A stretch of 33,347 nucleotides of DNA from a bacterium (GCA_030018795.1 JASEHA010000002.1:1-33347); one strand, 5' to 3'. Shown: positions 1-33,347, numbered from the stretch's first letter. A program made the numbers and translations. Notes: generated from the sequence alone by a model not told the origin.

Positions 1-660
1 GGCACCAATGCAAGCATTCAGCAGGCAGCCACTGGGCAGTATGGATCGTTTACCACAAGCTGGACAGTTGATGTCCAGGCGTATGGGACAACAACCGTGA
101 CAGCCAGAGGGGTGAGCGTGGCCACAAATGTGTTCAATATCCAGCCGCAGCTTGTCAGCGTTGTACCGACACAGGGGAGTGTTGGCACTATAGTGACGAT
201 TCTGGGCACAGGCTATGCATCAGGCGATAATATTACGGTAGCGTTTGGGACAAATGTTGGTATTCAGCAGGCAGTTGCCGGACAATATGGCTCATTTAGT
301 ACAAGCTGGACAGTTGATACCCAAAAGTATGGAACATGCACTATTACTGCCAGCGGTGTGAGTGTTGCTACGAATGTATTCAGTATCCAACCGCAGGTGG
401 TCAGCATTGTCCCGATACAAGGAAGCGTTGGCACAGTAGTAACTATTAGCTGCACAGGGTATGGTCCAAGCAACACAATCAGAATCAGCTTTGGCACCAC
501 AAATACCCTGACAACAGCTAAGGCAAGTAGTTATGGAACTATGACAACAATCTTTACCGTGAATACTCAAGTATTTGGAACAACAAGTGTTGTTGCTACA
601 AGCCAGAATACTAAGGACATTTCAGGCAAATATATTAACAATTTCAAGGAGTTTAAGATA
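1..660 (+). repeat. 5' block of 'YGSW/F-type' (B1) modules: one truncated plus two complete. It ends in an atypical Lys-rich junction linker.
   Basis: Modules read ...GQYGSFTTSWTVDVQAYGTTTVTARGVSVATNVFNIQPQLVSVVPTQGSVGTIVTILGTGYASGDNITVAFGTNVGIQQAVAGQYGSFSTSWTVDTQKYGTCTITASG... The third module ends with SQNTKDISGKYINNFKEFKIL (about 601-663) instead of the usual F-F-I-Q-P-Q linker. Confidence 0.75.
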
Positions 661-3600
661 CTTACAGCCATTTATATCACCCCAACTGAGGGTACGGTAG
701 GAACATTTGTGACTGTAACTGGTAATGGTTATGGCCAGATTGAGAACATAAGAATAGACTTTGGGACAACTATAAGTATGGTTAGTACTCAAAGCACAGC
801 AAATGGTAGCTTTACAGCAGTGTTTACTACCAATCCACAACCTACATTAGGTGTAATGGTTACAGCTGTTGGTGCAGTTACACAATATCCATCCAGCCGG
901 GTATTTGGTGTGGGGGCAAAGATTACCAGCGTTGTCCCTTCACATGGAACGGTTGGGACATTGGTCACAGTGGATGGCAATGGGTTTGGCAGCGAGGAAA
1001 CAATAATCTTAAGTTTTGGGCATACATCAGAGATAGCTGAGACAATGTCATTAATTGATGGAATATTCTCAAGCATCTTTGTCATTGATACTCAAAGCTA
1101 TGGATCAACAACCATTACTGCGGTTGGACAGACAACAAATCTGTCATCAAAGATAGACTTTAAGATAGAGCCAGAACTGGTAAACGTTATCCCAACTTGC
1201 GGTACGGTAGGGAGCAGTGTTACCATTAGTTGTACAGGTTATGGTGCCGAAGAGGCTGTATATGTTTCCTTTGGCAATGTAGAGAGTATTGCGACTGGTA
1301 TTGCTGGCATTGATGGGACACTTACCGTAGTATTTACAATAGATACTCAAAGCTATGCCACAAAGAGCGTAAAAGCAACTGGCATTACAACACAGGAAGC
1401 AGCAGTCAATACCTTCTACATTACCCCACAGCTGGTAAATGTTGTCCCAACTTGCGGTACAGTAGGGAGCAGTGTTACTGTTACGGGTACAGGCTATGGT
1501 GCGGGCGAAACGGTATGGGTAGATTTTGGCAAGACCATGAGCATAACTATGGGTGAAGCTGGTGAGGCAGGAGTATTTACCGCAGTGTTTACGGTTGATA
1601 CCCAGAGGTATGGGACACGGACGGTTGTAGCAACAGGCCAGCTGACACAACATGCTGCCAGTAATACATTCTATATTACCCCAGAATTAGTAAGCGTTAC
1701 ACCAAAGCTTGGTACGGTTGGCAGCTTTGTAACTGTGTTTGGCAGCGGCTATGGAGCAAGTGAAACCGTAAAGATAGGCTTTGGCAAGACTGTAAGCATT
1801 GTCAATAACATGACAGGTGCGGATGGTACATTTACGGCTGTCTTTACAGTTAATACCCAGGAATATGGGACAAAGACAATGATGGCAACCGGTCTGGCAA
1901 CAAATCATGCAGCAAGCAATACATTCTGTATTATAACCAATATAATAAGCGTAACACCTTCAACTGGTACGGTTGGAAGATCTGTGACTGTCAAGGGTAC
2001 TGGCTATGGTAATGGTGAGGTGGTGCTGGCAAACTTTGGCAAGACATCAGGTATTAATAGTGGTACGGCAAGCACTAATGGTACATGGACAATAGTATTT
2101 ACAGTGGATACTCAAAGCTATGCCACAAAGAGCATAAAGGCAACAGGGGTTGTAACACAGTATGCGGCTGTTAATGATACCTTCTTCATTATACCAAAGG
2201 TAGTAAGCGTAACACCTTCGACTGGTACGGTTGGAAGCTATGTGACCATATATGGCAATGGCTATAGCAGTGAAGAGCATGTGTGGGTTGACTTTGGTCA
2301 AACCATGACCATAGCCACAGGTATTGCCAGCAGCGATGGCAGCTTTACCGTGGTGTTTACTATTGATACCCAGAGGTATGCCACCAGGACCATAACTGCT
2401 ACAGGTGTTGACATTCAACTGCATAGTGCGGCAAATACCTTCTATATCACGCCAGAGGTGGTAAGTGTTACACCAAATAGCGGGACAGTGGGGACATTTG
2501 TAACCGTGTACTCCACAGGCTATGGTTCAGAAGAGGCTGTGCAAATAGACTTTGGCAAGACTGTGAGCATGGTTATGGGTGCAACCAGTGTGGATGGCAC
2601 ATTTACGGTGGTATTTACCATTGATATGCAACGATATGCGACAACAACTGTGATGGCAACAGGGGTTAGCACTCAGCACAGTGCAGCAAACACTTTCTAC
2701 ATTACTCCAAAGATAGTCAGTGTTACACCGTCGATGGGCACGGTTGGAACATATGTCACCATATACTCTACGGGTTATGGCTCAGGTGAAGCTGTGCAAG
2801 TAGACTTTGGGCAGACAGTGAGCAGGATTAGCTGTCTGGCGGGCAATAATGGTACATTTACAGTAGTGTTTACGGTTGACACGCAGGCATATGCCACTAA
2901 GACCATAACAGCTATTGGTGTTAGTACACAGCATGGTGCTATAAATACCTTCTATATTATGCCTCAAGTAGTAAGGGTAACACCTTCAAGGGGTACGGTG
3001 GGCACAGATGTTACAATTAGTTGTACAGGCTATGGTCCAGGAGAGGCTGTACAGGTTTCGTTTGGCAATGTAGGTAGTATTGCTACAGGTATTGTCAGCA
3101 ATGATGGGACATTTAGTGTTGTATTCGAGATTGATACCCAAATCTATGCAACCAAGACGATAACCGCTTTAGGGCTTGAGACACAGTATCCAGCAGTTAA
3201 TACCTTCTATATTACACCAGAGGTGGTAAGTGTAGTTCCAACAACAGGTACGGTTGGCAGTTGTGTTACCATTAATGGTACTGGATATGGTGACAATGAA
3301 ACCATAAATGTTAGTTTCGGTGTAGCAGGGAATATTACTTCAAGCCAGTCTTCAGCTATTGGGACATTTATTGCCACATTTACTGTAGATACCCAATACT
3401 ATGGGACAAAGACGGTTAGTGCCATTGGCGTAAATACGCTGCATGCAGCAGAGAATAGATTCTTTATTACCCCGCAGATGGTCTGGGTAACACCGAATTC
3501 AGCTACAGTAGGAACGATTGTGACCATTAAGGGAACTGGGTATGGGTTGTATGAAACAGTGAAGATTGATTTTGGCAATACATCAATCATAAAATCTGCA

Positions 3601-6600
3601 ACCACAGATTGGGCAGGAACATTCAGTTGTACCTTTACCATAAATACGCAGGTTTATGGGGATAAGACTATTACTGGTACTGGACAGGCAACAAAGTGTC
3701 CAGCAGGGATAAACTTCTTTATACGTGGTGCCATTACCCATATTTCACCACACTCAGCTACAGTAGGGGCAAGGATTACTGTCTTTGGTAATGGGTTTGG
3801 TGAAGAGGAGTTTATTACTATAGACTTTGGTACATATGTAGGAATAAATGCTGATTATGCCCATAGTAATGGCAGCTTTAATATTGCCTTTATAGTTAAT
3901 ACGCAACCTTCTGGCAGCCTGACTGTTTGGGCAACTGGTGGAAGTACATGGGAGAGGGATGAGCATCTCTTTATTATTACTGGTATTACCATGGTTAAGC
4001 CGACATCAGGACCGATAAGTACAGTGGTAACACTGTCTGGTGCAGGGTATTATGCGAGCGAATATGTCCAGATTGACCTTGGGACAGCTATTAATATTAA
4101 CAGACCTTTGACAGATGCAAATGGTAAGTTCTATACAACCTTTACCATTAATGATCCACAGTTCTATGGGATAAAGACCATTACTGCTGCTGGTCAGACA
4201 TCTAATCGTCTGGATATTGACTGGTTCAAGATTACCCCAAGGGTATACTTAATAAGCCCGTCAAGGGGTACGATAGGCACACCAATCATTATTAAGGGTG
4301 ATGGTTGGGAGCCAACCCTGAATTATCCGAATATATATCCAAATACGGTCTGGATTGAGGTAGACTTTGGTAGTCATGTGTGGAGAGGTATTGATCCTGA
4401 TACAGGTATCAGTCCAAGAACATCAGAACTTGGTACATTTACAGCTATGATTGATGATGCTGGTTCTCAACCAGGCGGGAGCATCTCTGTGACCGTGTCA
4501 GAGGCAGATAATCCAACTCTGATGGTTAAGGTACCATTCTATATTGAGGGTGAGATCACAAAGATTGAACCATCTATTGGTACGGTTGGCTCTCAAGTGA
4601 CGGTTGAGGGTCGTGGTTATGGTAATCTTGAGGGTGTGAGAATAGACTTTGGGACATCATGGGGGATTGTGCCCAGTACCAATAATAAAGCTGATAGTCA
4701 GGGTGTCTTTAGCACGGTATTTGTAATAGATATGCAGCCATGTGGCTCCACCACGGTCAGGGCTACTGGAGAACAGAGCAAGGTAACCATGACTAAACCA
4801 TTTGCTATCTTACCAAATATTATTACCCTGAATCCGAGTACTGGATTCTCGGGGATGATTATTCGGCTTGAAGGTAATGGGTTTGGATCATCAGAGGCAA
4901 TCAAAATAGGGTTTGGGACAACACCAACCATGCAGATAACAAGTACAGATGTAAATGGTTGGTTTGGGACAACCTTTACTGTGGATGTTCAGGCAAAGGG
5001 TGAGGTAAATATTCCGGTAATTGGTCTTAATTCTAATGTTATGGCCACAAGCACCTTCTGGATGCAGTCAGGGATTACACTAATAACGCCGAGTATCGGG
5101 ACGGTTGGAGTGACTGTAACCGTATATGGTGCTGGGTTCTGGCCAAATAGTGGTGTAACCATAGATTTTGGGAAAACACCAGCTATTAATGCAGCAAGTC
5201 CTGTATCTGCTTCATCCATGGGGACATTCTGTGCTACATTTGTAGTGAACTCTCAAAGCTATGGAACGACTACTGTCAGGGCAAAGAATTATAATGTAGA
5301 ACAGTATAATTGGGCAATTGATGATGATTACTTCTTTATCAAGGCTAATATAGCGACTGCTGTGCCTGCTGCTGGAACAGTAGGCAGGGTGGTGTCTATT
5401 ATCGGGGCAGGTTATAAATATAATGAGATAATAGATGTGAAATTTGGGACGACAAATAAGATAGCAACTACTGTTGCAAGTTTTGAGACAGGATACTATG
5501 GTGATGGCGGGACATTTGCAACAACCTTTACGGTTGATATGCAGGCATATGGGAATGTGACCATTGAGGCTGTTGGCAGGACCTCTGGTGCAAAGGGTAA
5601 TAGGATGTTCCTGCTTAGTGGTAATATTACCCTAATAACACCTTCTATTGGTACAGTGGGGACATGGGTAAGTATAACCGGCAATGGATATGCAGCCTCA
5701 GAGATTATTCGAATTGACCTGGGCACAACAAAGACGATTACCCTGGCTACAGCAACCTCTGGCGGCAACTTTAGTACAAGATTTATGATTGATAATCAGC
5801 CATATGGAACAACAACGGTTACTGCTTATGGAAATATATCGAAGCAGCAGATAAATGGCAAATTTAAGGTTATGCAGAGGATTGCCAGTGTTTCGCCATC
5901 CTCTGGTAGTACTGGAAACGTGATTACAGTTACTGGTGATGGTTATCATGCCGGTCAGGGGATAGGATTAAGCTTTGGAAGTACATCAAATATTGTCTCT
6001 ACAATAGTGGGTGCAAACGGCAGGTTTGAGGCTGTGTTTACGGTTGACATGCAGCCTTATGGTTCAAGGAGCATAGTAGCAATAGATACTGAAGGGCTTG
6101 TTGGTGAAGCAACCTTTAAGATTATGGCTAATATATCTCTGGTTTCTCCATCTCAATCACCGGTAGGAACAACCATTAGTATAGAGGGTAATGGGTATGG
6201 CAGAACAGAACAAATGTTTATCCTCTTTGCCAATAATCCGGTTGAGGATGCTACTGATATATGGAGTGATGCGAATGGTTGGTTTAGTGGGAGTTTTGTA
6301 GTAGACAGTCAACCCTATGGGACAACAACAATTCTTTGTTATGGTATGACTTCTAACGCAAAGGGTGAAAATTATTTATTGGTTATACCAAAGATTATTT
6401 CAATTACACCTGTCTCCTGTAGTGTTGGCAGTGTGGTAAGTATTGTTGGGGCAGGGTTTGTACCAACAGATGATATTACCGTTAGTTTTGGGACAACACA
6501 AAATATTAGGAATATTGTGACCTCAAGTATGGGTACATTCAGCATGGAATTTACGGTTGATGTTCAGCCTTATGGGACAGCAACCTTAGTTGCTATGAGT

Positions 6601-9600
6601 GCAATAACCAGGGTTGAGGAATATCTCAATATTTTGCCAAGGGTTATCATGGTTTCTCCATCCCAGGGTACTATTGGCAGTTATGTTATGATTATGGGTA
6701 ATGGGTATGGGTCAGGCGATATTATCCAGGTTAATTTTGGTAAGGCATCAAGCATCTGTAGGACAATAGCAAATGAAGTAGGTGAATTTATAGCAGGGTT
6801 TATGGTTGATACTCAGGTCTATGGCAATACAATTATTTCAGCAAAGGGTATAAAGGCTGGTACAGCTACAGGCAACTTTATCATTCTTCCTGAATTAATC
6901 AGGGTTGAGCCTTCAATGGGTACGGTTGGTACTCCGGTTATTGTTTCAGGTCAGGGTTATGCTGCCTCAGAAACTGTATATATCAGGTTTGGGAATAATA
7001 TGGAGCCGATAGCTGATACTATAACCAATGAATTGGGGATATTTACGGCTGCCTTTGTTGTGAATACTCAGAGTTTTGGGACAACAACTGTTAATGCTAT
7101 TGGTGTCAACTCTTCATCATCAGCTAATTATTTCTTTATTACACCGCAGTTCTATGAGGTTGCACCGACAAGTGGTACAATAGGCATATCAATAACCATT
7201 CGCGGAAATGGATATACTGCAAATGACCTTATCACTATTGATATTGGAACCACTCCTGAGATATTGAAGAATAAACTGGCTGAGCCTGATGGCTCCTTTA
7301 TCTTAAGCTTTACAGTAAATACCCAGGTTTTTGGGACATGCACTATTGTCGCTAAGGGTATGTATTCATCTACAGCTAAGAATCTATTCTTTGTTGTTCC
7401 GCAGATAGTTGAGATTACGCCAACCATTGGTACGGTGGGAACAATAGTTAACTTAAGCGGTAATGGGTATATAAGCGGTGAAAGAATAAAGGTTGGCTTT
7501 GGGCAGATTGAGTCAATGACAACTATGGTAGCAGATACAGTCGGACAATTCTCAAACATATTTGCTATTGGTACCCAACCTTATGGGACAACAACAGTTA
7601 CGGCAACAGGGCTGATGAGTGAGAGTCAGGCATATACAAGGTTTATGGTTACTCAGCAGATAGTTTCTATATCACCTCAAGCAGGAACAATCGGGACAAT
7701 AGTGACTGTGGTTGGTAATGGTTATGGTTTATCTGCAGCTGTTCGCATAGACCTTGGCAGTATACAAAGCATTGCTCTGGTAAATTCAAATGTAAATGGT
7801 GTATTTACAGCTATATTTACGGTTGGACTGCAGACAGTGGGAACAAAGACAGTAACGGCAACAGGATTAAATACTGGTGTGGTATCAATGGTTGCATTCA
7901 AGATTAAGCCAAATATCTATTTGATTACACCAACAGAGGGTACGGTTGGGACGATAATTACCTTATGTGGTAATGGATATGGTGTTTATGAGACTATTAA
8001 TGTTGACTTTGGAACAACAAAAACAATCATGTCATTTAGTGCTTCAACTGGTGGGACATTTACAAAGACCTTTACTATAAACACTCAGGGTTATGGTACA
8101 ACCACGGTTATAGCCAGAGGGATTAGTGATGAGAGTATCCGAACAGTGATGATTAGAGGCAAGATGACCCTGATTACTCCAATCAAGGGAACAATAGGGA
8201 CATTTATTACTATCAGCGCTATAGGCTATAGGACAGGTGAAACTGTAAGGGTAAGCTTTGGGACCACTGTTACCCTGTCAACAATTCAAGCTACAGAGGC
8301 CGGGACATTTACCGTGATATTTACAGCTGATAATCAGCCTTATGGGACAAATACAATCTCAGTTTATGGTATCAGTTCAACTGAGAATATAATGGCAGGT
8401 TTTGCTGTAGATCCAAAGGTATACTATGTGTATCCGATTGCTGGTCCAAAGGATGCTACGATTGATGTCAGGGGTAATGGTTATGGTAAGAATGAGACAA
8501 TAAGGGTTGATTTTGGTCAGAGTCAGGCAATCATAGCTGTGATTGCAAATGCAGACGGCAGTTTTGCCGGACAGTTTAATGTTACGGATCAACCCGGTGG
8601 CGTAGCAACCATTACCGCTATTGGTATGACTACTGGGGCAAGGGATGAGTATGATCTGCAGTTTACTGTCAAGCCTGGTATTGTCTCTATGACGCCGACA
8701 AGAGGGACAGTGGGCACGATTATCAGGGTGTTTGGCAGCAACTATGTGCCAAGTGCAATAATCAGGATTGATTTTGGTGACAGTAAGAGTATTACTATCA
8801 GGCAGGCAGCTATAGACGGCACCTTTGATATCAGTTTTACGGTTGACACTCAACGTTGTGGCTGGCAGACGGTTGTAGCTACTAATGTTGATAATCCAAC
8901 TCAGACCGATTGGCGAGGATTTACCATAATAGGCCGAATAGTAACAAGTACACCAACAAGGGGCACTGTAGGGACAGTGGTCTCGATAGCTGGTGATGGA
9001 TATGGAGCAGCTGAATTAGTCAGGATTGATCTTGGTGTAACCTCAGGGATTAAGGCAATGGTCTCAACAACAAATGGTGTGTTCTCAGGCAGCTTTAGTG
9101 TAGATGCTCAAGCTTATGGGACATGCACCATTATTGCTAGTGGTCAGACTTCTGGTCAGTCTACCACATCTACATTCTTTGTTACACCTCGAATCAAGAC
9201 AGTAACACCAAATACTGGTACAGTGGGAACATCTGTGACCGTTATTGGTGATGGTTATGAGGCAGCAGACTTTATCTGGATTAATCTGGGAACAATGAAG
9301 AGCATTAGTTATGCAACCACAGATAATCTGGGGGTATTTAATGCAGTATTTACGGTTGATACTCAAGTTTATGGCACAACAACGATAAAGGCAATAGATG
9401 TTGTTTCGTCTGAGGCAACATTCTTTATTAAGCCGCAGGTTTACAGCGTCCTGCCGACATCTGGAACAGTAGGAACAGTGGTAACAGTATCTGGCACAGG
9501 TTATGCTGCTAATGACACTATAACTGTTGGTTTTGGTACAAATGCTACTATTCAAACGGCAGCAGCAGATATACGCGGATGGTTTAGTACAACATGGACA

Positions 9601-24600: not shown

Positions 24601-27600
24601 GACCTGCAGGATTATGGAACAACTACTGTGAGTGCGTCAGGTAATGTTTCTGGAACAGCAACAAATACATTCTTTATCAAACCAAATATCTATGCTGTTG
24701 AACCTACAGAGGGGACAATAGGCACAATAGTAATGATTACTGGCAGCGGGTATGAAACAAGTGATACTGTTACCATAGCCTTTGGGGCAACACCAGTAAT
24801 TCAGCAGGCAGCAGCAGATAATAATGGTTGGTTCTCAAGCGTATTTACGGTTGATACACAGAGTTATGGGACAATGGTTATTCGTGCTACTGGTGCATTG
24901 TCAGAGTCAGCAGTGAATAGCTTTAAGATTAAGCCGCAGGTTTATTCAGTGCTGCCAACAGAGGGAACAGTAGGGACAGTGGTCAGTATCAAGGGTAATG
25001 GTTATGCAGTTATTGATGTTGTTACTGTTGCCTTTGGGACAAATAGCAATATCAAGAAGGCAAATGCCAATAGCTGCGGTATTTTTGAGACAAGCTTTAC
25101 TGTTGATACTCAGGTGTATGGAGTAACAAACATTATTGCTGCTGGCACGTCATCAGAATCAGCTGCAAACAGCTTCTTTATCCATGCCAATGTCTATCGG
25201 GTAAGCCCTGTCAAGGGTACGGTAGGCAGTCAGGTTGAGGTTAGAGGTACAGGTTATGTATCTGGTGATACAATCAGGGTTGATCTTGGCAAGACATGGA
25301 ATATTCAATCGAGTACAGCAGATAGTGCTGGCAGGTTCCAGACCAGCCTTGTGGTTGATGTTCAAGCCTATGGTTCAACAACAGTCAGGGCAACAGGTGT
25401 ATCCTCAGAGTCAGCAGTAAACAGCTTTACCATTATGCCGGATATTTATCAGGTAATACCAACTACTGGAAGTGTGGGTACAAAGGTAACCATAAAAGGT
25501 AATGGGTATGCAGTCTCAGACTTTGTAGCCGTTGCCTTTGGGAATAATTCAAACATTGCAGCTGTGACAGCAGACAGGAATGGCTCTGTTCAGGCAGTAT
25601 TTACAGTTGATACTCAAGGTTTCGGGCAAAAGGTTATAATAGCATGCGGGGCATCCTCAGATGAGGCAGTTAATAGCTTCTTCATCAAGTCTCAGCTTTA
25701 TTCTGTATCGCCATCAAGGGGTACAATTGGTCAGACTATTGAACTGAAGGGTACTGGTTATGGAATGATGGATACAGTCATGATAACCTATGTTGGCAGC
25801 ACAGAAACAACAACAGCTGATGCTAATGGATACCTTACTGCAACATTTGTGGTAGCAAGTCAAGTGTTTGGGACAAAGACAGTAACTGCTCTTGGTCAGG
25901 TAGCAGGCTCAACCGAGAATGTGTTCAGTGTAATACCATCTGTCTACTCAGTAATACCAACAAGGGGTGGTGTTGGCAGCGTGGTCACTGTCAGTGGCTC
26001 TGGTTATGCGGCAAATGACCATATCACCATTGGTTTTGGGACAAATAATAATATTGCCAGTATTCTCTCAGATAATACTGGCAATTTTGAAACAACCTTT
26101 GCTGTTGATACCCAGCCTGTGGGCATAACAACGATTATTGCCTCAGGGTTGCAGTCATCTTCAGCATATAACTATTTTGCCATTGTTGGCGGTATTATCC
26201 TTCAGCCGGCAAGGGGCACGGTTGGATGTGTGGTCGGGATTTCAGGGACAGGGTTTACCGCAAACAGTAATGTAAGGATTGACTTTGGTCTGACAAAGAC
26301 CATTGCCCTGATATTGACAAATGCAAGTGGAGCATTCTCAGGGGCATTTACGGTTGATACTCAAGCGTATGGGACATGTGCGGTTTCAGCCAGTGGCGGT
26401 GCCTATGCAGCACTTGAGTTTGTTATCTTGCCGCAAGTGTTTAGTGTCAGCCCAACTGAGGGCAGTGTGGGAACGATTGTAAATATTAAGGGTAATGGTT
26501 ATAAAGGACTGGAGGCTATTGAGATAGACTTTGGGACAACAAGGTTTACAACTAATGCTGGAATATCTGGTGACTTTAGTGTTGTATTTACGGTTGATAC
26601 TCAAGTCTATGGACGGAAGACGATTATAGCTATAGGTGCAGCAGCAGGTTCAGCGGCAAATAGCTTCTTTATTCGTGCAGCAATTTATAACCTGACACCA
26701 ACAACAGGGACAATTGGGACAATGGTTACGGTTGGTGGGACAGGTTATGCTATAAATGATGCCCTTACCATATTATTTGGTACGAACAATAGCATTAAGA
26801 CAGGTGCGGCGGGGGTGAATGGCTCGTTTGAGACAACATTTATAGTTGATACACAACCATATGGAACAGCTACCATTACAGTAGCAGGTGCTTCTTCTGA
26901 GACAGCCTTGAGACGGTTCTTTGTGAGTCCACAGGTGTTTTCAGTTGTACCTTCAGCAGGTACGGTTGGATGTCAGGTTATGGTTAGCGGTACTGGCTAT
27001 GCCGCAAGTGAGGCAATTACCATAGGCTTTGGGACAACCAATAATATTCAGACAACAGTAACAGATATTCGTGGTTACTTTACAACAATATTCACAGCAA
27101 ACACCCAAAAATATGGGACAATAGCGGTTAAGGCAACTGGTGTACAGTCTGCTTCGGCTGAGAATACATTCTTTATCCAGAAGAATATCTACTATGTCAG
27201 TCCATCAACAGGCACAGTAGGACAGCAGGTTGAGATTCGCGGGACAGGATACAGCAACTTTGATAATATCAGGGTAGACTTTGGCAGCACATTAACTATT
27301 TGTACTGCTGTGGCAAATACAAATGGCTGGTTCAAGACATTCTTTACGGTTGATACTCAAGGTTTTGGCTCAACTACAATCATGGTTGCTGGTGTTGCCA
27401 TGGATAAGGCAGAAGCAGTATTTTCTATTATGGCTGATATGCCTGCTGTTCAGCCAACTACTGGTAGTGTTGGTACTGTGGTAACTATTAAGGGAACAGG
27501 CTACTTGGGCTCTTCAGATATAATTATAGACTTTGGTGATATGGAAAATATCGTTCTTACTCAAACAGATGCAAGAGGTTATTTTGTGGCTGCATTTACA

Positions 27601-30600
27601 GTTAATACTCAAGGTTATGGCACAAAGACCATAGCTGCTTATGATACTATAGACAATCGGGTTGAGAGAACATTCCTTATCCTGCCGAGTGTATATCTGG
27701 TGACGCCAGCTATTGGTACGGTTGGTCAGACAATAACAGTTAAGGGTGCAGGATTTGCAAAATATGACAATCTGACAATTGATATGGGAGACAGGCAAGG
27801 TATTACCAGCATTGTTACAGATCCACGCGGTGTGTTTGAGACAAGCTTTGTGGTTGATACTCAAGTGGTTGGTAAGAAGATGGTTGTTGTCAGTGGTACT
27901 ATGTCTACACAGGCAACAAGCAGCTTTACCATTACTGGTGGGATTATTATTTCACCATCCATTGGAACAATAGGGAAGGTGGTAGAGGTAAAGGGTAGTG
28001 GATTTGGCGGAGAGGATGTCATTAGTGTCAGTTTTGGGACAACAAGTCATGTGGCTACAGTAGTCAGTAGCAATCGTGGTACCTTTAGTACAATGTTTGC
28101 TATGGATGGACAGGTTTATGGGACAACAACCATTTCAGCTACAGGTAAGAGCTATGCTGAAGGCTATATCTTTGTCAAGCCAAACTTCCATCTGGTAATA
28201 CCAACAATAGGCTCAGTGGGGACAGTGGTCAGGATTGCGGGTACAGGTTATGCAGCATCTGATCTGGTGACCATAGCCTTTGGCAATACCATAGTGATTG
28301 GGACAACAATGGCTTCAGTGAGCGGATACTTTGAGACAACCTTTACGGTTGATACCCAGAAGTATGGCTCAACATATATCAGGGCAACAGGTGCAGCATC
28401 AGATGCAGCCTTGAATACATTCTTTGTTAATCCTGATCTTTACCTTGTATCACCAAATAAGGGACCGATTGGAACCGTGGTTGAGATACGTGGTACAGGC
28501 TATGATGCCATTGATACTGTGAATGTAACATTTGGCAGCACACAGAACATAATTACAGGCGTTGCCTCTGGTAATGGTGCATTTAGTGTTACATTTGGTG
28601 TGAATACGCAACCCTATGGGACAACAACCATTATAGCTGCTGGTACAAGGTCTGCTTCAGCTAATAATGCCTTTACCATTATGCCATCTATCTACTCTAT
28701 CCTTCCAAAGTCAGGTACAGTTGGAACAGTGGTTGAGGTAAAGGGGATTGGGTATGGTGTTAATGATGATATTATCATTGGATTTGGTGCAAGCGGTGCA
28801 TTGGCAGAAGGTGATGCTAATGCTAATGGTATCTTTGTTATTCATTTTACAACAGATACTCAAGCCTTTGGAACAACCACGATTATTGCGGTTGGCGTAA
28901 ATTCTACTCTTTGTGCCGGGACATTCTTTATCTATCCAAACCTCTATTCTGTCAGTCCAAATGCAGGAACAATTGGAAGGATGGTTGAGGTCAAGGGATC
29001 AGGGTATGCATCTGGTGAGGCTGTTGCAGTCAGGTTTGGGACAAATATGTTTTTCCAGAACATAACAGCTGATACAAGGGGTTATGTTGAGACCGTGTTT
29101 AATGTAAATACTCAGGTTTATGGAACTACCACGGTGAAGCTTACCGGAGTAATTGCCGGGAGTGCTACCAATACATTCCGTATCATGCCAAATATCTATG
29201 CTATAACACCAACTAAGGGTACGGTTGGAGCTACTGTTGAAATAAAGGGTGCAGGGTATGCGGCTACAGAAACAATCAGGATTGACTTTGGGAATGCTGT
29301 TAGTATTAAGACAACAATAGCCGATAATCTTGGTTGTGTAAATACGAGCTTTACGGTAAATGTTCAGCCATATGGTCAAAAGGTTGTTAGATTAACAGGG
29401 AGTTTATCTACGGTAGTTGAAGATACATTTACTATTATTCCAGCCATATACTCAGTAACACCAGTTTCAGGCTCTGTGGGTACAGTGGTTGAGGTAAAGG
29501 GTTCAGGCTATGCGGCAACAGATTCTATCACGATAGATTTTGGCAATAATGGCCGTATTCAGACAGCTATAGCAAATGGCAATGGTTACTTTACAGCCTC
29601 ATTTACAGTAGATACACAAGGGTATGGGACAACAACCATTACGGCAAGTGGTGCATCCTCATCATCAGCCATAAATACATTTATGATTGTTGGTGGGATC
29701 ATGGTTACACCGACTTCTGGTACAGTGGGTACCAATGTTTATGTTGAAGGGACAGGGTTTGATGTAAATGAGCCAGTGAATATTGATTTTGGCACAACAC
29801 CTGCTGTTGTTACCCTGAATACAGACAATCGTGGTGTATTTACCGGGTACTTTACCATTAATACACAGGCCTATGGTCAGGTAGTGGTAAAGGCAGTTAA
29901 TTCTACGACAGCTCAAACCAGCTTCTTTATCATGCCAACTCTGTATATGGTAACACCATCCTTTGGTACGGTCGGAACAGTGGTCACGATTAATGGTAAT
30001 GGTTATGATGATACAGAGGCAGTAACGGTCAGGTTTGGTGCAACTACATTACCTGTGGTGAATAGTGATAATATTGGCTGCTTTGAGGCAAGGTTTACAG
30101 TAAATACGCAAAGCTATGGGACAACAACGATTCGGGCAACAGGTGCTGGATCTGCTGAGGCAAGGAATGTATTCTTTATCAAACCAATGATATATTCTGT
30201 AAACCCAGTAACAGGTACGGTTGGTACTGTGGTTGAAATAGTTGGTGTTGGTTATAATAAGATGGATGCGGTGAGCATTGACTTTGGGACAACAGCAGCA
30301 ATAAAGCAGACAACAGCTGATATAAGCGGATACTTTAAGACAACATTTACTGTAGATACACAATCGCTTGGGACAACAACCATCAAGGCAACAGGCAGCC
30401 TTTCTGAGGCAGCATATGGAGTATTTGGTATTCGTCCATCCCTGTATTTAGTAAGTCCAACAACTGGTACGGTTGGAATGATGATTGATATTTATGGTCG
30501 TGGGTATGCTCAGGGTGAAGGGATTACCATTGACTTTGGCAACAATAAGGCTATCAAGACAACCATTACAGATGAAAAGGGATACTTTGCTACCTCCTTT

Positions 30601-33347
30601 GAAGTAGATACTCAAGTGTTTGGCAAGACAACCATCACAGCTAAGGGCATAATGAGTGCAGAAAATACCTTCTTTATCAAGCAGGATATTGCCTCTGTAA
30701 TGCCAAACAAGGGTACAGTAGGAACAGTTGTTTCTATTACTGGTACAGGCTATGCAGCAAGTAATAGTATTACTGTCATGTTTGGAACAAATATCAGTAT
30801 TCAACAGGCAGCAAGTGATGAGAAGGGATACTTTGAGGCAGTGTTTACTGTTGATATTCAAGTGTTTGGGACAACAACGATTACAGCTGCAAGTGCTAAG
30901 AATACATTCTTTATTATCCCGGATGTTTATCTGGTAAGTCCTACAATCGGTACAGTAGGGAGTATGGTTGAGATTCGTGGGACAGGCTATAAGCAAAATG
31001 ATAATGTAAATATCAGCTTTGGGACAACAGCAAGTATTCAAACCAAACTTGCGGATGTTAAGGGCTGGTTCAAGACAACCTTTACTGTGGATACTCAAGT
31101 CTATGGTCTGACAACTATTCGTGCTACAGGTATTGATACAGCTGTAAATAGCTTCTTTGTTGAACCGGCAATATACTCAGTCAGACCGACCTCAGGCTCT
31201 GTGGGTACAATTGTTACCATAAAGGGTACAGGGTATATGTCCTTAGATACCCTGACAGTGATGTTTGGCAACAATCCAAACATCAAGATGGATGCAGCAG
31301 GGGCTAATGGCTCGCTTGAGACAACCTTTGCGGTGGATACTCAAGCACTTGGCACAACAACGATTACTGTCAAGGGTACATTTGGTCAGGCTTCAAATGT
31401 GTTCAATATTGTAGCAACAATCAATATCAGTCCAACTATTGGTACTGTAGGTACAATTGTAAGCATTCAGGGTGATGGGTTCAAGGCAAACAGCCTGGTA
31501 AGGATTGGCTTTGGTAATGTAACAACTATAACCACGATAATGAGTGACCCAGCAGGTGCCTTTAGCGGGACATTTGTGGTGGATACTCAAGGCTTTGGAC
31601 AAAAGGTTGTCTCTGCTCTGGCTAAAGGCTATGCAGAGGAGACATTCTCTATTATTCCTGAACTGTATTTAGTATCACCGTCAAAGGGCAGTGTTGGCAC
31701 AGTAGTTGAGATACGTGGTACTGGTTATGATGTTATGGATGATATAACCATAGCCTTTGGGACAACACTGGGGATTACAAGTACAGTTGCAGATACACGA
31801 GGTTATTTCAGCACAATATGGACAGTGGATACACAAGGTTATGGGACAACAACGATTGTTGCCAGCGGTGTGGGTGTGGCAAGCAACGTATTCTTCATCT
31901 TGCCGCAGGTATACAGTGTGCTGCCGACATTTGGCACGGTTGGCACAATAGTTACTGTCAGTGGCACAGGTTATGCGGCAGGAGACATTATAACCGTTGG
32001 CTTTGGCACAAAAGCTAATATTCAGCAGGCAACAGCTGATATTTACGGATGGTTCTCTACAGCGTTTACGATTGATACGCAAAAGTATGGGACAACGACC
32101 ATTACTGCTACAGGCATAGCTGTAGCATACAACAGGTTCTATGTTTTGCCAGAGGTATACAGCGTATTACCAACATCTGGCACAGTTGGTACAATGGTAA
32201 CCATTCGTGGTACAGGTTATGCAGTAAGCGACAGGATAACCGTAGCCTTTGGCACAAATGCCAATATTCAGCAGGCAACAGCAAGTGTTCATGGGTCATG
32301 GACAGTGGCATTTACGGTTGATGTGCAGATGTATGGGACTACAACGATTAGTGCCAGTGGTGTGAGTGTGGCAAGCAATGTGTTCTACATCTTGCCAGAG
32401 GTATACAGCGTGGTACCAACACTTGGTACGGTTGGCACACTGGTAACCATACAGGGCACAGGCTATGCAGCAGGCGACAATATCACCATTGGCTTTGGCA
32501 CCAATGCCAGCATTCAAACGGCAGTGGCAAGTGTCCATGGGTCATTCACAGTAGTGTGGACAGTTGATACTCAAAGTTATGGCACAACAACCATCACGGC
32601 TGCAGGAATAGCCACAGCGTACAACAGGTTCTATATCCTGCCAGAGGTATACAGCGTACTGCCAATATCTGGCACGGTTGGCACGATAGTTACTGTCAGC
32701 GGTACAGGCTATGCGGCAGGAGACATTATAACCGTTGGCTTTGGCACCAATGCCAGCATTCAGACGGCAATGGCAGGTGTGTATGGGTCATTCACGGCTG
32801 TGTGGACAGTTGATACTCAAAGCTATGGCACAACAACCATTACCGTTGCAGGTATCGCCACAGCGTACAACAGGTTTGTTATTCTGCCAGAGGTATACAG
32901 AGTGCTGCCGACATCTGGCACGGTTGGCACAATCGTTACTGTCAATGGTACGGGTTATGCCGCAAACGACAGTATAACCGTTGGCTTTGGCACAAATGCC
33001 AATATTCAGACAGCAGCAGCAGATACACGCGGCTGGTTCAGCACAACATGGACAGTTGATACTCAAGCGTATGGGACAACAACCATTACTGCAACGGGTG
33101 CCAGTGTTGTTGCAGGCAATACATTCTACATCGAGCCGCAGGTTGTCAGCGTGCTGCCAGCAGAAGGCACGGTTGGGACAGTGGTAACCATCAGTGGTAC
33201 AGGCTATGCCGCAGGTGATAGTATAACTGTCAGCTTTGGCACAAATGCTGCTATTCAGACAGCGATAGCAGGTACATACGGATCATTTACTGCAGTGTGG
33301 ATAGTTGATACTCAAAGCTATGGCACAACAACCATTACCGTTGCAGG
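1..33347 (+). CDS. Internal fragment (5' and 3' partial) of a giant tandem-repeat protein, probably extracellular or cell-surface. At least 11,115 codons, composed entirely of IPT/TIG-like Ig-fold modules.
   Basis: Manual frame +1 translation of nt 1-33345 gave no TAA, TAG or TGA. The repeat motif is in the same register at nt 1 (GTNASIQQAATGQYGSFTTSWTVDVQAYGTTTV), nt 15001 (TGYAAGDGITIAFGTNNNIK) and nt 33241 (TNAAIQTAIAGTYGSFTAVWIVDTQSYGTTTITVA). All module lengths are multiples of 3. The supplied ORF track has no frame-1 + strand entry, as expected for an ORF with no stop in the window. All listed ORFs are 216 aa or shorter and lie in other frames. No start-proximal or C-terminal non-repeat sequence is present, so both ends are outside the window. 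Confidence 0.9.
1174..3720 (+). repeat. Sub-block A1: 10 consecutive homogeneous modules of 255-258 nt. The signature is 'VDTQ-x-Y-A-T-K/R' with linker 'TGV-x-TQH-x-AANTFYITP(E/Q)VVSVTP'.
   Basis: Pro positions are 1192, 1447, 1702, 1957, 2215, 2473, 2728, 2983, 3238 and 3493. Motifs SYATKSVKATG, SYATKSIKATG, RYATRTITATG, RYATTTVMATG, AYATKTITAIG and IYATKTITALG occur here, whereas YGT is used almost everywhere else. Confidence 0.7.
4243..4554 (+). repeat. Outlier module of 104 codons, the longest in the window. It has two loop insertions and lacks the VDTQxYG motif.
   Basis: Translation: VYLISPSRGTIGTPIIIKGDGWEPTLNYPNIYPNTVWIEVDFGSHVWRGIDPDTGISPRTSELGTFTAMIDDAGSQPGGSISVTVSEADNPTLMVKVPFYIEGE. 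Pro-to-Pro spacing is 312 nt (4258 to 4570), against about 255 nt in neighbouring modules. Confidence 0.7.
5074..5625 (+). repeat. Two adjacent extended modules of 92 codons each.
   Basis: The Pro spacing 5089-5365-5641 is 276 nt twice. The first module has an extended linker (RAKNYNVEQYNWAIDDDYFFIKANIATAV). The second has an insertion before the F-strand (ASFETGYYGDGGTFATTFTVDMQ). Confidence 0.65.
9439..19686 (+). repeat. Zone B1: 41 modules, mostly 246/249 nt, dominated by 'GTGYAA-x-D-x-ITIAFGTN-x-x-IQ-x-A-x-(A/G)-x-Y-G-S-(W/F)-T-T-x-(W/F)-TVDTQ' with linker 'FFIQPQVVSV-x-P'. A few other subtypes are interspersed.
   Basis: Examples: VVSVSPNSGTVGTVVIITGTGYAASDSVTVAFGTNNNIQQAVASEYGSWTTMFTVNVQVYGTTTITASG (about 10957) and VTSVLPTTGTVGTVVAVTGTGYAAGDGITIAFGTNNNIKQAVASQYGSWTTTFTVDTQRVGTTTITASG (about 14944). 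Pro spacing is 246-252 nt throughout, apart from the trio at 15694-16458. Confidence 0.7.
15694..16458 (+). repeat. Three zone-A-like modules embedded in zone B1. The first lacks the VDTQxYG motif.
   Basis: Module at 15694: IIGIYPTAGAIGLLVTIKGDGYRAGRTVNISFGTIGILTTTTVAASGEFTAFFVIPDDSVGPKTVTAADG. The next two carry the zone-A signatures GNGYGGNETIRIDFGQT and ADGYGSNELIRIQLGTS, with spacings of 255 and 261 nt. Confidence 0.6.
19687..31908 (+). repeat. Zone B2: 49 modules, mostly 252 nt. The type is 'x-(I/V)-Y-x-V-x-P-x-x-G-T-V-G-x-x-V-E-(V/I)-(K/R)-G-x-G-Y ... F-G-(N/T) ... (A/T)-D-x-(R/K/N)-G-(Y/W/F)-F-x-T-x-F-x-V-D-T-Q'.
   Basis: Examples: IYSVTPVSGSVGTVVEVKGSGYAATDSITIDFGNNGRIQTAIANGNGYFTASFTVDTQGYGTTTITASG (about 29446) and VYRVSPVKGTVGSQVEVRGTGYVSGDTIRVDLGKTWNIQSSTADSAGRFQTSLVVDVQAYGSTTVRATG (about 25192). 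Runs of exactly 252-nt spacing occur at 24199-25711 and 26950-27706. Confidence 0.7.
26191..31662 (+). repeat. Higher-order block in which a distinct 'punctuation' module subtype recurs at exactly every 7th module (modules 104, 111, 118 and 125 of my count).
   Basis: Punctuation modules start near 26191 (AIVGGIILQPARGTVGCVVGISGTGFTANSNVRIDFG), 27940 (TITGGIIISPSIGTIGKVVEVKGSGFGGEDVISVSFG), 29695 (MIVGGIMVTPTSGTVGTNVYVEGTGFDVNEPVNIDFG) and 31417 (NIVATINISPTIGTVGTIVSIQGDGFKANSLVRIGFG). Spacings are 1749, 1755 and 1722 nt. The six modules between each pair mostly use the Pro-type linker (F-x-I-x-P-x-x-Y-x-V-x-P, with a few lacking the first Pro) and all use G-x-G-Y, except that module 110 (about 27691) has G-A-G-F. 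Confidence 0.6.
31909..33347 (+). repeat. 3' terminal block of six B1-type modules of 246/249 nt, the last one truncated. Long identical nucleotide tracts are shared between copies.
   Basis: Modules read LPTSGTVGTMVTIRGTGYAVSDRITVAFGTNANIQQATASVHGSWTVAFTVDVQMYGTTTISASG, LPISGTVGTIVTVSGTGYAAGDIITVGFGTNASIQTAMAGVYGSFTAVWTVDTQSYGTTTITVAGIATAYNRF, and so on. Pro codons sit at 31924, 32170, 32416, 32662, 32908 and 33157. Confidence 0.75.

Follow-up and report, generated by a model that had tools for sequence, protein, structure and literature searches.

The locus is the middle of one giant gene

The window, by which we mean the entire 33,347-nucleotide stretch analysed here, is filled by a single reading frame on the plus strand that contains no stop in 11,115 codons and is open at both window ends (Table 1). 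Each of the other five frames contains 262-984 stops, and, since stops occur at a frequency of ~6% in the other plus-strand frames, a stop-free run of this length is not a product of chance. No tRNA or Rfam match was found across the window, a Pfam search of the antisense ORFs returned no match, nor is there any credible gene on the antisense strand. The window forms the central part of one giant gene that belongs to an uncultivated Desantisbacteria-like bacterium.

The translated window has a mass of 1,148 kDa and a pI of 4.8. Its computed composition (T 15.8%, G 11.8%, V 10.9%, I 8.9%, A 8.8%, and S 8.4%, with D+E+K+R at 9.8% and Cys at 0.5%) matches the first-pass annotation, which had described a product rich in these six residues, with few charges and almost no Cys. 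Its 11,115 residues contain no transmembrane-like segment: the maximum 19-residue Kyte-Doolittle hydropathy is 1.81, and all of the high-hydropathy 19-residue windows are beta-strand motifs. A Pfam search of the window protein detected no catalytic domain and returned only weak matches to TIG, Big_6, and CARDB, which agrees with the annotation's view that the module is the only domain type present.

Table 1. Coordinates of the array and its subdivisions (w, modules of the window; o, modules of the ortholog).
Position	Strand	Feature	Details
1..33347	+	Internal fragment of one giant ORF, 133 abutting Ig-like modules	Frame 0, 11,115 codons
1..396	+	w1 (cut by window start) and w2, 'core' subtype	w2 orthologous to o101 of the JAHIZN010000456.1 ORF
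397..1176	+	w3-w5, individually distinct	Orthologous to o102-o104, 67-76% identity
1177..3222	+	w6-w13, eight-module 'FYITP' cassette	Eight modules of another subtype at the same ortholog position
3223..11205	+	w14-w44	Collinear one-to-one with o113-o143 (ortholog comparison)
4243..4554	+	w18, aberrant 104-aa module	Kept at the same ortholog position (o117)
11206..33347	+	w45-w133	Ortholog contig offers no counterpart
25942..31662	+	Stretch with a Gly-type junction every 7 modules	
32155..32892	+	w129-w131, three consecutive modules	Modelled by AlphaFold2

A module HMM built from 81 cleanly delimited modules found exactly 133 end-to-end matches, the number that had been estimated by the first reading; 131 of these are complete, the window ends truncate the other 2, and per-module E-values run from 1e-16 to 4e-36. 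The module envelopes cover ~99% of the residues, leaving only ~73 (0.7%) outside. Modules range from 79 to 104 residues, usually 82-86, around a consensus of 83, and the longest is the aberrant w18 (aa 1415-1518), in which the N-terminal strand and the PxxGxxG motif are normal while the remainder is enlarged and divergent. Per-column residue frequencies reproduced the proposed module motif, with P6 (99%), G9 (96%), V11 (84%), G12 (98%), G19 (92%), G21 (99%), Y/F22 (100%), D/E26 (91%), F32 (86%), G33 (98%), G47 (100%), F/W49 (92%), F/W53 (98%), D/N56 (94%), Q58 (99%), Y/F60 (84%), G61 (94%), F79 (92%), I/V81 (99%), and P83 (80%). Only two acidic positions are kept across the modules.

Within the window, the modules share on average 41.5% amino acid and 52% nucleotide identity (at most 83% of nucleotides), and exact nucleotide repeats reach 45 nt at most, so that a repeat-collapse artefact of assembly is unlikely. 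An identity-versus-separation analysis of the modules revealed no general super-repeat. One recurrent subtype, the 'core' subtype, follows the pattern ..GTGYAAGD.ITVAFGTN..IQ...WTVDTQ.YGTTTI...IQPQ, and in the w45-w133 stretch core-type blocks (w43-46, w58-61, w70-78, and w127-133) alternate with more divergent modules.

An ortholog shows purifying selection and conserved module order

A contig from another MAG (JAHIZN010000456.1) carries an ortholog, whose ORF contains no stop over at least 12,149 aa and encodes 144 modules. Module by module, it is collinear with the window; this contig also ends inside the gene. The blocks w14-w44 and o113-o143 are both 2,661 aa long and share 76.8% amino acid identity, and the dN/dS between the window and this independent assembly is 0.25 over 2,658 aligned codons, with the gene shown to be under purifying selection. 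The ortholog has at least 99 further modules upstream of the position that corresponds to the start of the window, which implies a full gene of at least 232 modules (~19,000 aa); the gene thus probably encodes at least 19,000 residues. Across the two genomes that this positional comparison took in, 35 modules have one-to-one orthologs at the same position, their second-best matches being ~30 percentage points lower, and one eight-module cassette has been swapped for a different cassette of eight, which preserves the count. By sequence comparison, then, single modules hold their position between the two genomes.

These data also bear on a further reading, that of an assembly artefact or of a pseudogene in decay that yields no functional product, which might be suspected of repetitive metagenome sequence with open ends, particularly as relatives of the module are mostly fragments on 1-3 kb contigs. 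This reading is effectively refuted, and we give it almost no probability, because (i) the frame is free of stops where the other frames have hundreds, (ii) the dN/dS was obtained against an independent assembly, and (iii) repeats as short and as diverged as these can be resolved by short-read assembly. The gene is real and old.

The modules adopt a predicted Ig-like fold

In the AlphaFold2 model of three consecutive modules (w129-w131; pLDDT 97.1, pTM 0.83), the structure is all-beta and each module has seven strands, as does a module modelled singly (pLDDT 94.7). In the three-module model, only 2 non-strand residues separate the last strand of one module from the first strand of the next. 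The models thus show each module as a seven-stranded Ig-like (TIG-like) beta-sandwich, joined to its neighbours without linkers, and they rule out a beta-helix. Foldseek matched the three-module model to tandem Ig-like arrays (probability 1.00, E 6e-8 to 1e-5), the top match being the extender of MpIBP (6xi3), with SiiE (2yn5), Bap (7c7u), the MG domains of complement C3, and plexin IPT3-6 (5l7n) among the others. The Ig-like or E-set fold that the annotation had proposed was therefore borne out.

The further claim that the modules carry the classic IPT/TIG signature was overstated. TIG is indeed the leading Pfam family, with matches at E<=0.01 in 27 of the 130 modules searched (best 2.4e-5), compared with 5 for Big_6 and 2 for CARDB. 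However, the consensus module scores 20.3 bits against TIG (PF01833; E 5.5e-4, profile positions 4-82 of 84), just below the gathering threshold of 20.9 bits; one real module reaches 21.2 bits, most fall below the threshold, and a Pfam search with seven 1000-aa chunks of the window protein gave no TIG match. In single-module Foldseek searches, the structure was no closer to TIG (CAMTA1, TM 0.53-0.64) than to other Ig-like families (invasin/intimin Ig-like domains, TM 0.60-0.70; C3 MG domains, 0.64-0.67), all with E-values of at least 0.019. The apt wording is an IPT/TIG-like Ig fold.

The single-module search also returned Ig-like domains of glycosidases, CARDB, and a CBM48, and the best PDB sequence match of the module is domain D of cyclodextrin glucanotransferases (CGTase). 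Together with the diversity of the modules and the remark of Monzon et al. (2021, PMC8286594) that a stalk role and an adhesive one can overlap, these matches could suggest that the modules resemble carbohydrate- or protein-binding Ig-like domains and are themselves ligand-binding units, with avidity arising from more than 100 slightly different sites. We regard such a polyvalent binder as quite unlikely: the matches are weak (E 0.02-0.1) and to generic Ig-like folds, no ligand-binding motif was identified in the modules, and conservation is highest at Gly, Pro, and aromatic core residues in loops and at the ends of modules, a pattern of fold and junction and not of a binding site.

Junctions between modules

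Linker type varies together with the identity of residue 22 in the module that follows (p=7.6e-6) and with that of residue 60 in its own module (p=5.8e-6), whereas shifted controls gave p>=0.69. The covariation is weaker in the ortholog (p=0.005-0.011) and may in part reflect the shared ancestry of duplicated two-module units. Gly-type (non-Pro) junctions at w104/105, w111/112, w118/119, and w125/126 recur every 7 modules and may be hinge points.

This spacing over part of the array, the positional orthology of 35 modules, the equal length of the 31-module block in both genomes, and the eight-for-eight cassette replacement would all fit a titin-like, position-addressed scaffold, ruler, or intercellular tether, in which partners bind at set positions or an exact length matters. 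Vertical descent of an old, non-homogenised array also predicts positional orthology, however, and no general super-repeat accompanies the Gly-type spacing; the comparison comprises two genomes only, and we judge this reading very unlikely. Its boldest form, in which the array is a bacterial counterpart of titin, a micrometre-scale scaffold or tether with addressed positions and not a passive spacer, is a rather improbable conjecture. If it were true, more than 200 individually conserved modules, a preserved count, and periodic Gly-type hinges would define a length and provide position-specific docking sites, and the protein could keep a small Desantisbacteria-like cell and a partner or prey cell a set distance apart.

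Relatives point to export and surface anchoring

Three relatives (P0020, P0049, and P0047) have N-termini that resemble signal peptides and lead straight into modules, and three others (P0016 and P0069, 28 bits; P0140, 26 bits) end in Por_Secre_tail (TIGR04183; cut-off 23 bits). At a metagenome locus (L005), modules 62% identical to those of the window are followed by a CTD-like end that matches the C-termini of PorU and of a T9SS-dependent protease, and the gene immediately downstream encodes a member of the PorV/PorQ family (NF033709; 149 bits against a cut-off of 90). The C-terminal region at this locus is 74% identical to a protein fragment of a Desantisbacteria MAG, which also carries close relatives of the window modules. 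Elsewhere, the same module is combined with NHL, PD40, peptidase M23, prenyltransferase-like, and PEGA domains; partners as different as these indicate a general spacer that defines no function itself.

The 11,115 residues of the window contain no adhesive or ligand-binding domain, the termini lying outside it. This lack, the direct passage from signal peptide to modules in P0020 (such that a tip domain may be absent altogether), the Thr-rich, low-charge composition, and Foldseek matches to S-layer proteins (7ptp; SbsC, 4uid) lend some weight to a surface coat or matrix protein in place of an adhesin. Many such rods would form a brush, a sheath, or a canopy associated with an S-layer. A cover of this kind would keep the surroundings at a distance from the cell and shield it from phages, predators, or minerals, and it would have no specific ligand. 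Yet S-layer proteins are usually abundant, modest in size, and self-assembling, and a gene of at least 58 kb would make a costly coat; the dN/dS together with position-specific conservation points to selection on single modules, and a tip domain could lie beyond the window. A coat is, on balance, unlikely.

We favour, as the probable though by no means certain explanation, a giant fibre or stalk that is exported by a T9SS-type route and anchored at the cell surface, and of whose gene the window is the middle. Its signal peptide, sorting domain, and any tip domain we infer from relatives at 53-62% identity, and not from the ortholog. The chain would leave the cytoplasm by Sec through an N-terminal signal peptide, use a type IX-like pathway, with a C-terminal type A sorting domain as the recognition signal, to cross the outer membrane, and remain attached to the cell surface. 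There the array would form a thin, fairly stiff shaft, its stiffness arising where the conserved end loops of adjoining modules pack directly on each other (GTGY and D/E26 on one side; FG, VDTQxYG, and the Pro linker of the preceding module on the other), with occasional Gly-type junctions as hinges. If each module adds 3.5-4.5 nm, the fragment would by extrapolation reach ~0.5 micrometre and the complete chain at least 0.8 micrometre; the ~0.5 micrometre of the first-pass annotation is a reasonable extrapolation that probably falls short of the whole protein. Such a shaft could keep its N-terminal end far from the cell, either to let it attach to particles, surfaces, or other cells or to provide a protective brush. 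The protein would then be an extreme case of a very large but recognisable type of bacterial surface protein.

Comparison with known systems

The closest structural parallel is MpIBP of Marinomonas primoryensis, a 1.5-MDa ice-binding RTX adhesin with more than 100 tandem Ig-like modules that projects from the outer membrane as a thin rod of ~0.6 micrometre and whose 104-aa repeats are identical at the DNA level (PMC5550230). Both proteins hold more than 100 tandem Ig-like beta-sandwich modules in one polypeptide, and the tetra-tandem of the MpIBP region II (RII) extender leads the Foldseek matches, with SiiE among the next. The window modules differ, however, in being 82-86 aa long, 41.5% identical on average, and individually conserved between genomes, and near-identical extender repeats, as expected of type I-secreted RTX adhesins with Ca2+-dependent BIg extenders (MpIBP, SiiE, and LapA), are absent from the array. 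Moreover, MpIBP is a type I secretion substrate with RTX repeats, whereas the relatives that show a C-terminus have T9SS-type domains (type A) instead.

Fibrillar adhesins combine tandem stalk domains, which build an elongated rod, with an adhesive domain in one chain, with 1-73 stalk domains per protein in the survey of Monzon, Lafita & Bateman (2021, PMC8286594). Our protein shares the tandem array in one chain but exceeds that range with the 133 modules of the fragment alone, and its window lacks an adhesive domain. A Pfam-based screen for fibrillar adhesins would largely miss it, as most modules score below threshold.

Among the single-domain-type giants described by West-Roberts et al. 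(2023), namely the Oscillospiraceae RCC1-type proteins, SwmB, and titin, the resemblance lies in more than 10,000 residues, one repeating domain type, the lack of TM regions, and a predicted extracellular location; the repeat is a TIG-like Ig domain rather than RCC1. The Omnitrophota giants of the same study have numerous TM regions, a SecA-DEAD-like domain, and mixed enzymatic domains, whereas the window fragment has neither TM regions nor enzymatic domains; the Desantisbacteria-like lineage is not mentioned in its main text.

With IPT/TIG domains (E-set clan), such as those of the plexin/Met IPT arrays, the modules share a length of ~84 aa, the P-x-x-G-x-x-G-T-x-V-T-I-x-G-x-G-F/Y motif, and the seven-stranded Ig-like sandwich, but their second half (F-T-V-D-T-Q-x-Y-G-T-T-T-I) is specific to this subfamily.

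Among T9SS-anchored surface proteins, SprB of Flavobacterium johnsoniae (~6,500 aa, type B CTD) serves gliding motility in Bacteroidota. Proteins of this group are very large, repetitive, beta-rich surface filaments that the type IX system exports by way of a C-terminal sorting domain, and among the relatives of our protein some have Por_Secre_tail and one has a PorV/PorQ neighbour. The CTD of these relatives is of type A, however, the phylum is another one, the repeats belong to a TIG-like family, and our protein exceeds SprB in length by a factor of at least 2-3.

A single open frame encodes 133 tandem modules

Frame 0 of the plus strand is stop-free over all 11,115 codons and remains open past both window ends, and the remaining five frames contain 262–984 stops each. 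Because this one long frame runs through both ends, an ORF listing returns only short ORFs (≤216 aa), nearly all of them antisense. In one of the antisense frames, stops number only 262 and ORFs reach 216 aa (examples in the table); Pfam searches of the antisense ORFs gave no matches, and their openness most likely follows from the codon content of the sense frame, which is strongly biased and Thr/Gly/Val-rich. GC content is 40–47%, and GC skew is positive throughout, as expected for a single coding strand. Searches of the window for tRNA, tmRNA, and Rfam families were negative. The encoded fragment (1,148 kDa; pI 4.8) contains no TM-like segment. The ORF carries 98 N-x-S/T sequons, many of which fall within a conserved FGTN(A/S)(S/N)I stretch.

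The translation was split at a G-x-[VIAL]-G-[TSD] anchor, a profile HMM was derived from 81 clean modules, and the fragment was searched with it using hmmsearch. The 11,115-codon translation yielded exactly 133 end-to-end matches (w1–w133), of which 131 are whole (79–96 aa, mostly 82–86 aa) and two are truncated by the window ends. Gaps between envelopes are 0–4 residues, except for 8 residues after module 3 and 59 unaligned residues belonging to an aberrant module, w18, and the modules make up ∼99.3% of the fragment, which bears out the proposal of the first-pass annotation that the window holds about 133 such modules and no other domain type. Per-column frequencies likewise reproduced the module motif proposed there, including its family-specific F-T-V-D-T-Q-x-Y-G-T-T-T-I core, and the computed composition agrees with the Thr/Gly/Val/Ala/Ile/Ser-rich, charge-poor, and nearly Cys-free one described.

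Coordinates of features in the window and in relative contigs (slash in sequences, module junction)
Feature	Sequence	Coordinates	Strand	Description
Cassette w6-w13	Window	1177-3222	+	Eight FYITP-type modules; ortholog o105-o112 = eight core CILPQ-type
Aberrant module w18	Window	4243-4554 (aa 1415-1518)	+	104 aa; first 23 residues fit the HMM, rest enlarged and divergent
Gly-type junctions every seven modules	Window	25942-31662	+	w104/105, 111/112, 118/119, 125/126; ..VGG/II.., ..TGG/II.., ..VG/GIM.., ..VA/TIN..
Antisense ORF	Window	9085-9684	-	
Antisense ORF	Window	30448-31098	-	
C-terminal region (~1,850 aa) of L005 module protein	Ga0210016_1000665	2563-8133		
Gene after L005 module protein	Ga0210016_1000665	8280-9263		PorV/PorQ-family
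N run of locus L003	JAEMOG010006674.1	~2500-2575		Scaffold gap between two called genes

The modules are Ig-like beta-sandwiches

Pfam searches of seven 1000-aa chunks detected no Ig-like family, TIG included. The only matches (e.g., in 9001–12000 and 30346–33345) were Gal-bind_lectin (25.1 bits; cut-off 22.1) and SAC9_GBDL_2nd, both of which lack an assigned stretch and are probably false positives summed from weak matches over many repeats; the former (PF00337) is also a precomputed label on two relatives, P0001 and P0010. The consensus module aligned with TIG (PF01833) over its full length at 20.3 bits (threshold 20.9), and one real module reached 21.2 bits. When modules were scanned singly at E ≤ 0.01, TIG was matched by 27 of 130, Big_6 by five, and CARDB by two. 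A sequence profile search of the PDB gave marginal matches throughout, led by domain D of cyclodextrin glucanotransferase (E = 0.025), itself an IPT/TIG-type domain, and followed by neocarzinostatin (E = 0.06), while NCBIfam returned only below-threshold matches, to a PGS-family Ig-like domain and an enediyne chromoprotein.

With 118 overlapping three-module segments of the same protein aligned as input, AlphaFold2 modeled three consecutive modules with a pLDDT of 97.1 and a pTM of 0.83 (single module: pLDDT 94.7); the model has seven strands per module and two non-strand residues between the last and first strands of adjoining modules. In Foldseek searches against the PDB, the triple model gave 224 matches at E ≤ 0.001, led by (i) the MpIBP tetra-tandem extender (6xi3), (ii) Bap, (iii) SiiE, (iv) complement C3 MG arrays, (v) a Haloferax S-layer protein, and (vi) plexin IPT3-6, and the single module matched intimin/invasin Ig-like domains, C3 MG, and the CAMTA1 TIG domain with TM scores of 0.53–0.70, all at E ≥ 0.019. 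The seven-stranded prediction and these Ig-like matches uphold the Ig-like beta-sandwich fold claimed earlier. The narrower IPT/TIG identity stands only in part: TIG is the commonest Pfam match, but the consensus falls under the threshold, which makes formal membership borderline. The modules are thus Ig-like beta-sandwiches best called a divergent TIG-like subfamily.

A collinear ortholog shows the array to be old and under selection

A scan of GTDB species-representative genomes identified an ortholog on JAHIZN010000456.1 (55,768 bp; "MAG: bacterium isolate Modern_marine.mb.176"), where two loci overlap exactly to give 36,449 nt with one stop-free frame, encoding 12,149 aa and 144 modules (numbered with the prefix o). 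The two genes are different sequences, with 80% nucleotide identity across 8.1 kb by megablast, and scans of genome and metagenome contigs for the window gene did not recover the window sequence but returned this one ortholog (80% nucleotide identity) and one 62% relative. Module-wise BLAST revealed strict collinearity, with w2–w5 corresponding to o101–o104 and w14–w44 to o113–o143; collinear pairs are 61–91% identical, whereas second-best matches are mostly 36–59% identical. The w14–w44 block spans 2,661 aa in each genome, with 76.8% amino acid and 79.4% nucleotide identity and a dN/dS of 0.25 (Nei-Gojobori, window versus ortholog).

Within the window, identity between modules averages 41.5% in amino acids and 52% in nucleotides (at most 83%); exact nucleotide repeats reach no more than 45 nt, and TRF found only arrays with ∼74–75% matching. 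The array is therefore old, diverged, and non-homogenised, and it could be assembled from short reads because its modules are diverged rather than identical. An assembly artefact or a pseudogene is effectively ruled out by the stop-free ORF, the collinear ortholog, the dN/dS, and the low identity among modules.

In the aberrant module w18, the B-C region (..GDGWEPTLNYPNIYPNTVWIEVDFG..) is enlarged and the VDTQxYG core is absent. The module is conserved in place in the ortholog, as o117, and given this positional conservation, it may be a specialised site. The stretch bounded by the anchors w5/o104 and w14/o113 consists of eight modules in each genome, but their subtypes differ (see the table), and the FYITP-type w6–w13 are nearest to o86–o94, elsewhere in the ortholog. 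By sequence comparison, this looks like an intragenic cassette replacement in which module number was kept.

Covariation across module junctions

Linkers were classed from the raw sequence, since Gly-type linkers align as gaps at the Pro83 column, giving 93 Pro-type, 16 Gly-type, and 23 other junctions. When the linker after module n was Gly-type, (i) position 22 of module n+1 more often held Phe in place of Tyr (9/16 versus 8/115; Fisher p = 7.6e-6) and (ii) position 60 of module n more often lacked an aromatic residue (10/16 versus 11/115; p = 5.8e-6). The association was absent from controls in which the comparison was shifted by -1, 2, or 3 modules (p ≥ 0.69), and in the ortholog array, the trend was the same but weaker (p = 0.005 and 0.011). 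Judged by Ig topology and the DSSP strand order, the C-terminal end of module n would carry the linker and position 60 (E-F loop), and the N-terminal end of module n+1 would carry position 22 (B-C loop). Covariation among sites at adjoining module ends fits packed junctions of two classes. Modules after Gly junctions form a weak subfamily, so that shared ancestry may account for part of the covariation.

Toward the end of the window, Gly-type junctions recur every seven modules, and the module following each of them has GxGF in place of GTGY. These junctions may be regularly spaced hinges; no such periodicity occurs in the upstream region of the ortholog. Identity plotted against module separation showed no titin-like super-repeat.

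Probable export and surface anchoring

Termini of the window protein lie beyond the window, and its probable route to the surface was considered from relatives that bear the module. Three of these (P0020, P0049, and P0047) begin with a signal-peptide-like sequence followed at once by modules, and two (P0052 and P0066) with a signal peptide and a prenyltransferase/squalene-cyclase-like domain before the modules. The C-termini of P0016, P0069, and P0140 match, above cut-off, the type A sorting domain (TIGR04183) of the type IX secretion system (T9SS). A further relative, at locus L005 of a JGI contig, has ten modules, the eight best-scoring of which are 59–74% identical to core-type modules of the window (those with GTGY and VDTQxYGTTTI), then ∼1,850 aa with a different repeat of ∼105–110 aa, and ends in a CTD-like domain with matches to the C-terminal ends of PorU and a T9SS-dependent protease. 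Directly downstream lies a gene for a PorV/PorQ-family outer-membrane protein (149 bits; cut-off 90). The C-terminal region of the L005 protein shares 74% identity with a fragment of a protein in the Desantisbacteria MAG AAB110, which also holds 58–62% relatives of the window modules. Upstream of P0020, there is no secretion clue, only housekeeping genes (ribosomal proteins, class I aminoacyl-tRNA synthetase, ClpX, and Lon).

The signal peptides, sorting domains, and PorV/PorQ neighbor of these relatives point to a most likely route for the window protein in which Sec-dependent export would precede type IX-like sorting and anchoring. The second L005 repeat is unannotated, with the approximate pattern G..P..G....F.F.V.Y.D.D...P....P.V.I ... 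Y.Y.F.A.D..G, and also occurs in P0121.

Full length and comparison with known giant proteins

The window start corresponds to o100/o101, which places at least 99 whole ortholog modules upstream of the matching point, with a further 15.5 kb of the ortholog contig lying upstream beyond the examined loci, and the window extends 89 modules past the end of those loci. If both genes have the same layout, the whole protein would comprise at least 232 modules and ∼19,400 aa, a size that West-Roberts et al. (2023) class as "large" (>10,000 aa). In MpIBP, >130 Ig-like domains extend over >600 nm, and three tandem domains measure 145 Å (PMC5550230). A rise of 3.5–4.5 nm per linker-free 83-aa module is plausible, at which the fragment would extend ∼0.47–0.60 micrometre and the whole protein at least 0.8 micrometre.

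The closest functional likeness is to extender regions of giant adhesins (MpIBP and SiiE) and to giant T9SS-anchored surface proteins, of which SprB is one. The modules are shorter than those of MpIBP, and they are diverged and positionally conserved, whereas MpIBP repeats are identical; moreover, MpIBP has a T1SS-type end, whereas relatives of the window protein end in T9SS type. A systematic survey of fibrillar adhesin-like proteins counted 1–73 stalk domains (Monzon et al., 2021; PMC8286594), a range that the array exceeds, and the projected 232 or more modules would be ∼3 times that maximum. The protein groups with giant proteins built of a single domain type, like RCC1 giants, SwmB, and titin, and not with the TM-rich, enzyme-laden giants of Omnitrophota (West-Roberts et al., 2023). 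Since no adhesive domain was seen within the window, "adhesin" would go beyond the data, and "giant surface fibre" is the safer term. We rate the protein as a new, extreme case of known giant surface proteins; a titin-like scaffold or tether is improbable.

With at least 232 distinct modules (∼19,000 aa), the protein would rank among the longest bacterial tandem Ig-like arrays and would approach the domain count of titin. Its source is a candidate phylum with essentially undescribed cell biology; Desantisbacteria are mentioned in only 20 open-access papers, and the ten of these that were listed treat mostly sulfur (dsr) metabolism and no surface proteins. Having been assembled from short reads, the array is a tractable model for the evolution of very long tandem-domain proteins and for misfolding avoidance.

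Distribution of the module among relatives

Such proteins fall into a twofold blind spot: (i) standard Pfam annotation of the long protein yields no valid domain, and (ii) relatives in public MAGs are shattered, the closest database relatives (≤62% identity) being nearly all "hypothetical protein, partial" on 1–3 kb contigs of Candidatus Desantisbacteria MAGs. When 1.84 billion representative proteins were searched with a profile, the module was found in 7,151 at E ≤ 1e-3 and in 691 at E ≤ 1e-30. Among the best 150 of the 7,151 matches, the longest protein has 7,284 aa, and both the window protein and its ortholog are absent; very long proteins may be under-represented in this library, and we draw no conclusion as to rarity.

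The module serves as a spacer across many architectures (P0049, P0047, P0052, P0066, P0121, P0140, and P0152), which include small complete proteins with a signal peptide, seven modules, and an acidic Glu/Lys tail; prenyltransferase/squalene-cyclase-like fusions; NHL and PD40 beta-propellers; a NosD-like beta-helix with a T9SS tail; and a peptidase-M23/FG-GAP protein. The two genes called at locus L003 are probably one gene divided by an N run, with PEGA-like repeats preceding the modules upstream of the gap and a T9SS type A domain ending the downstream part.
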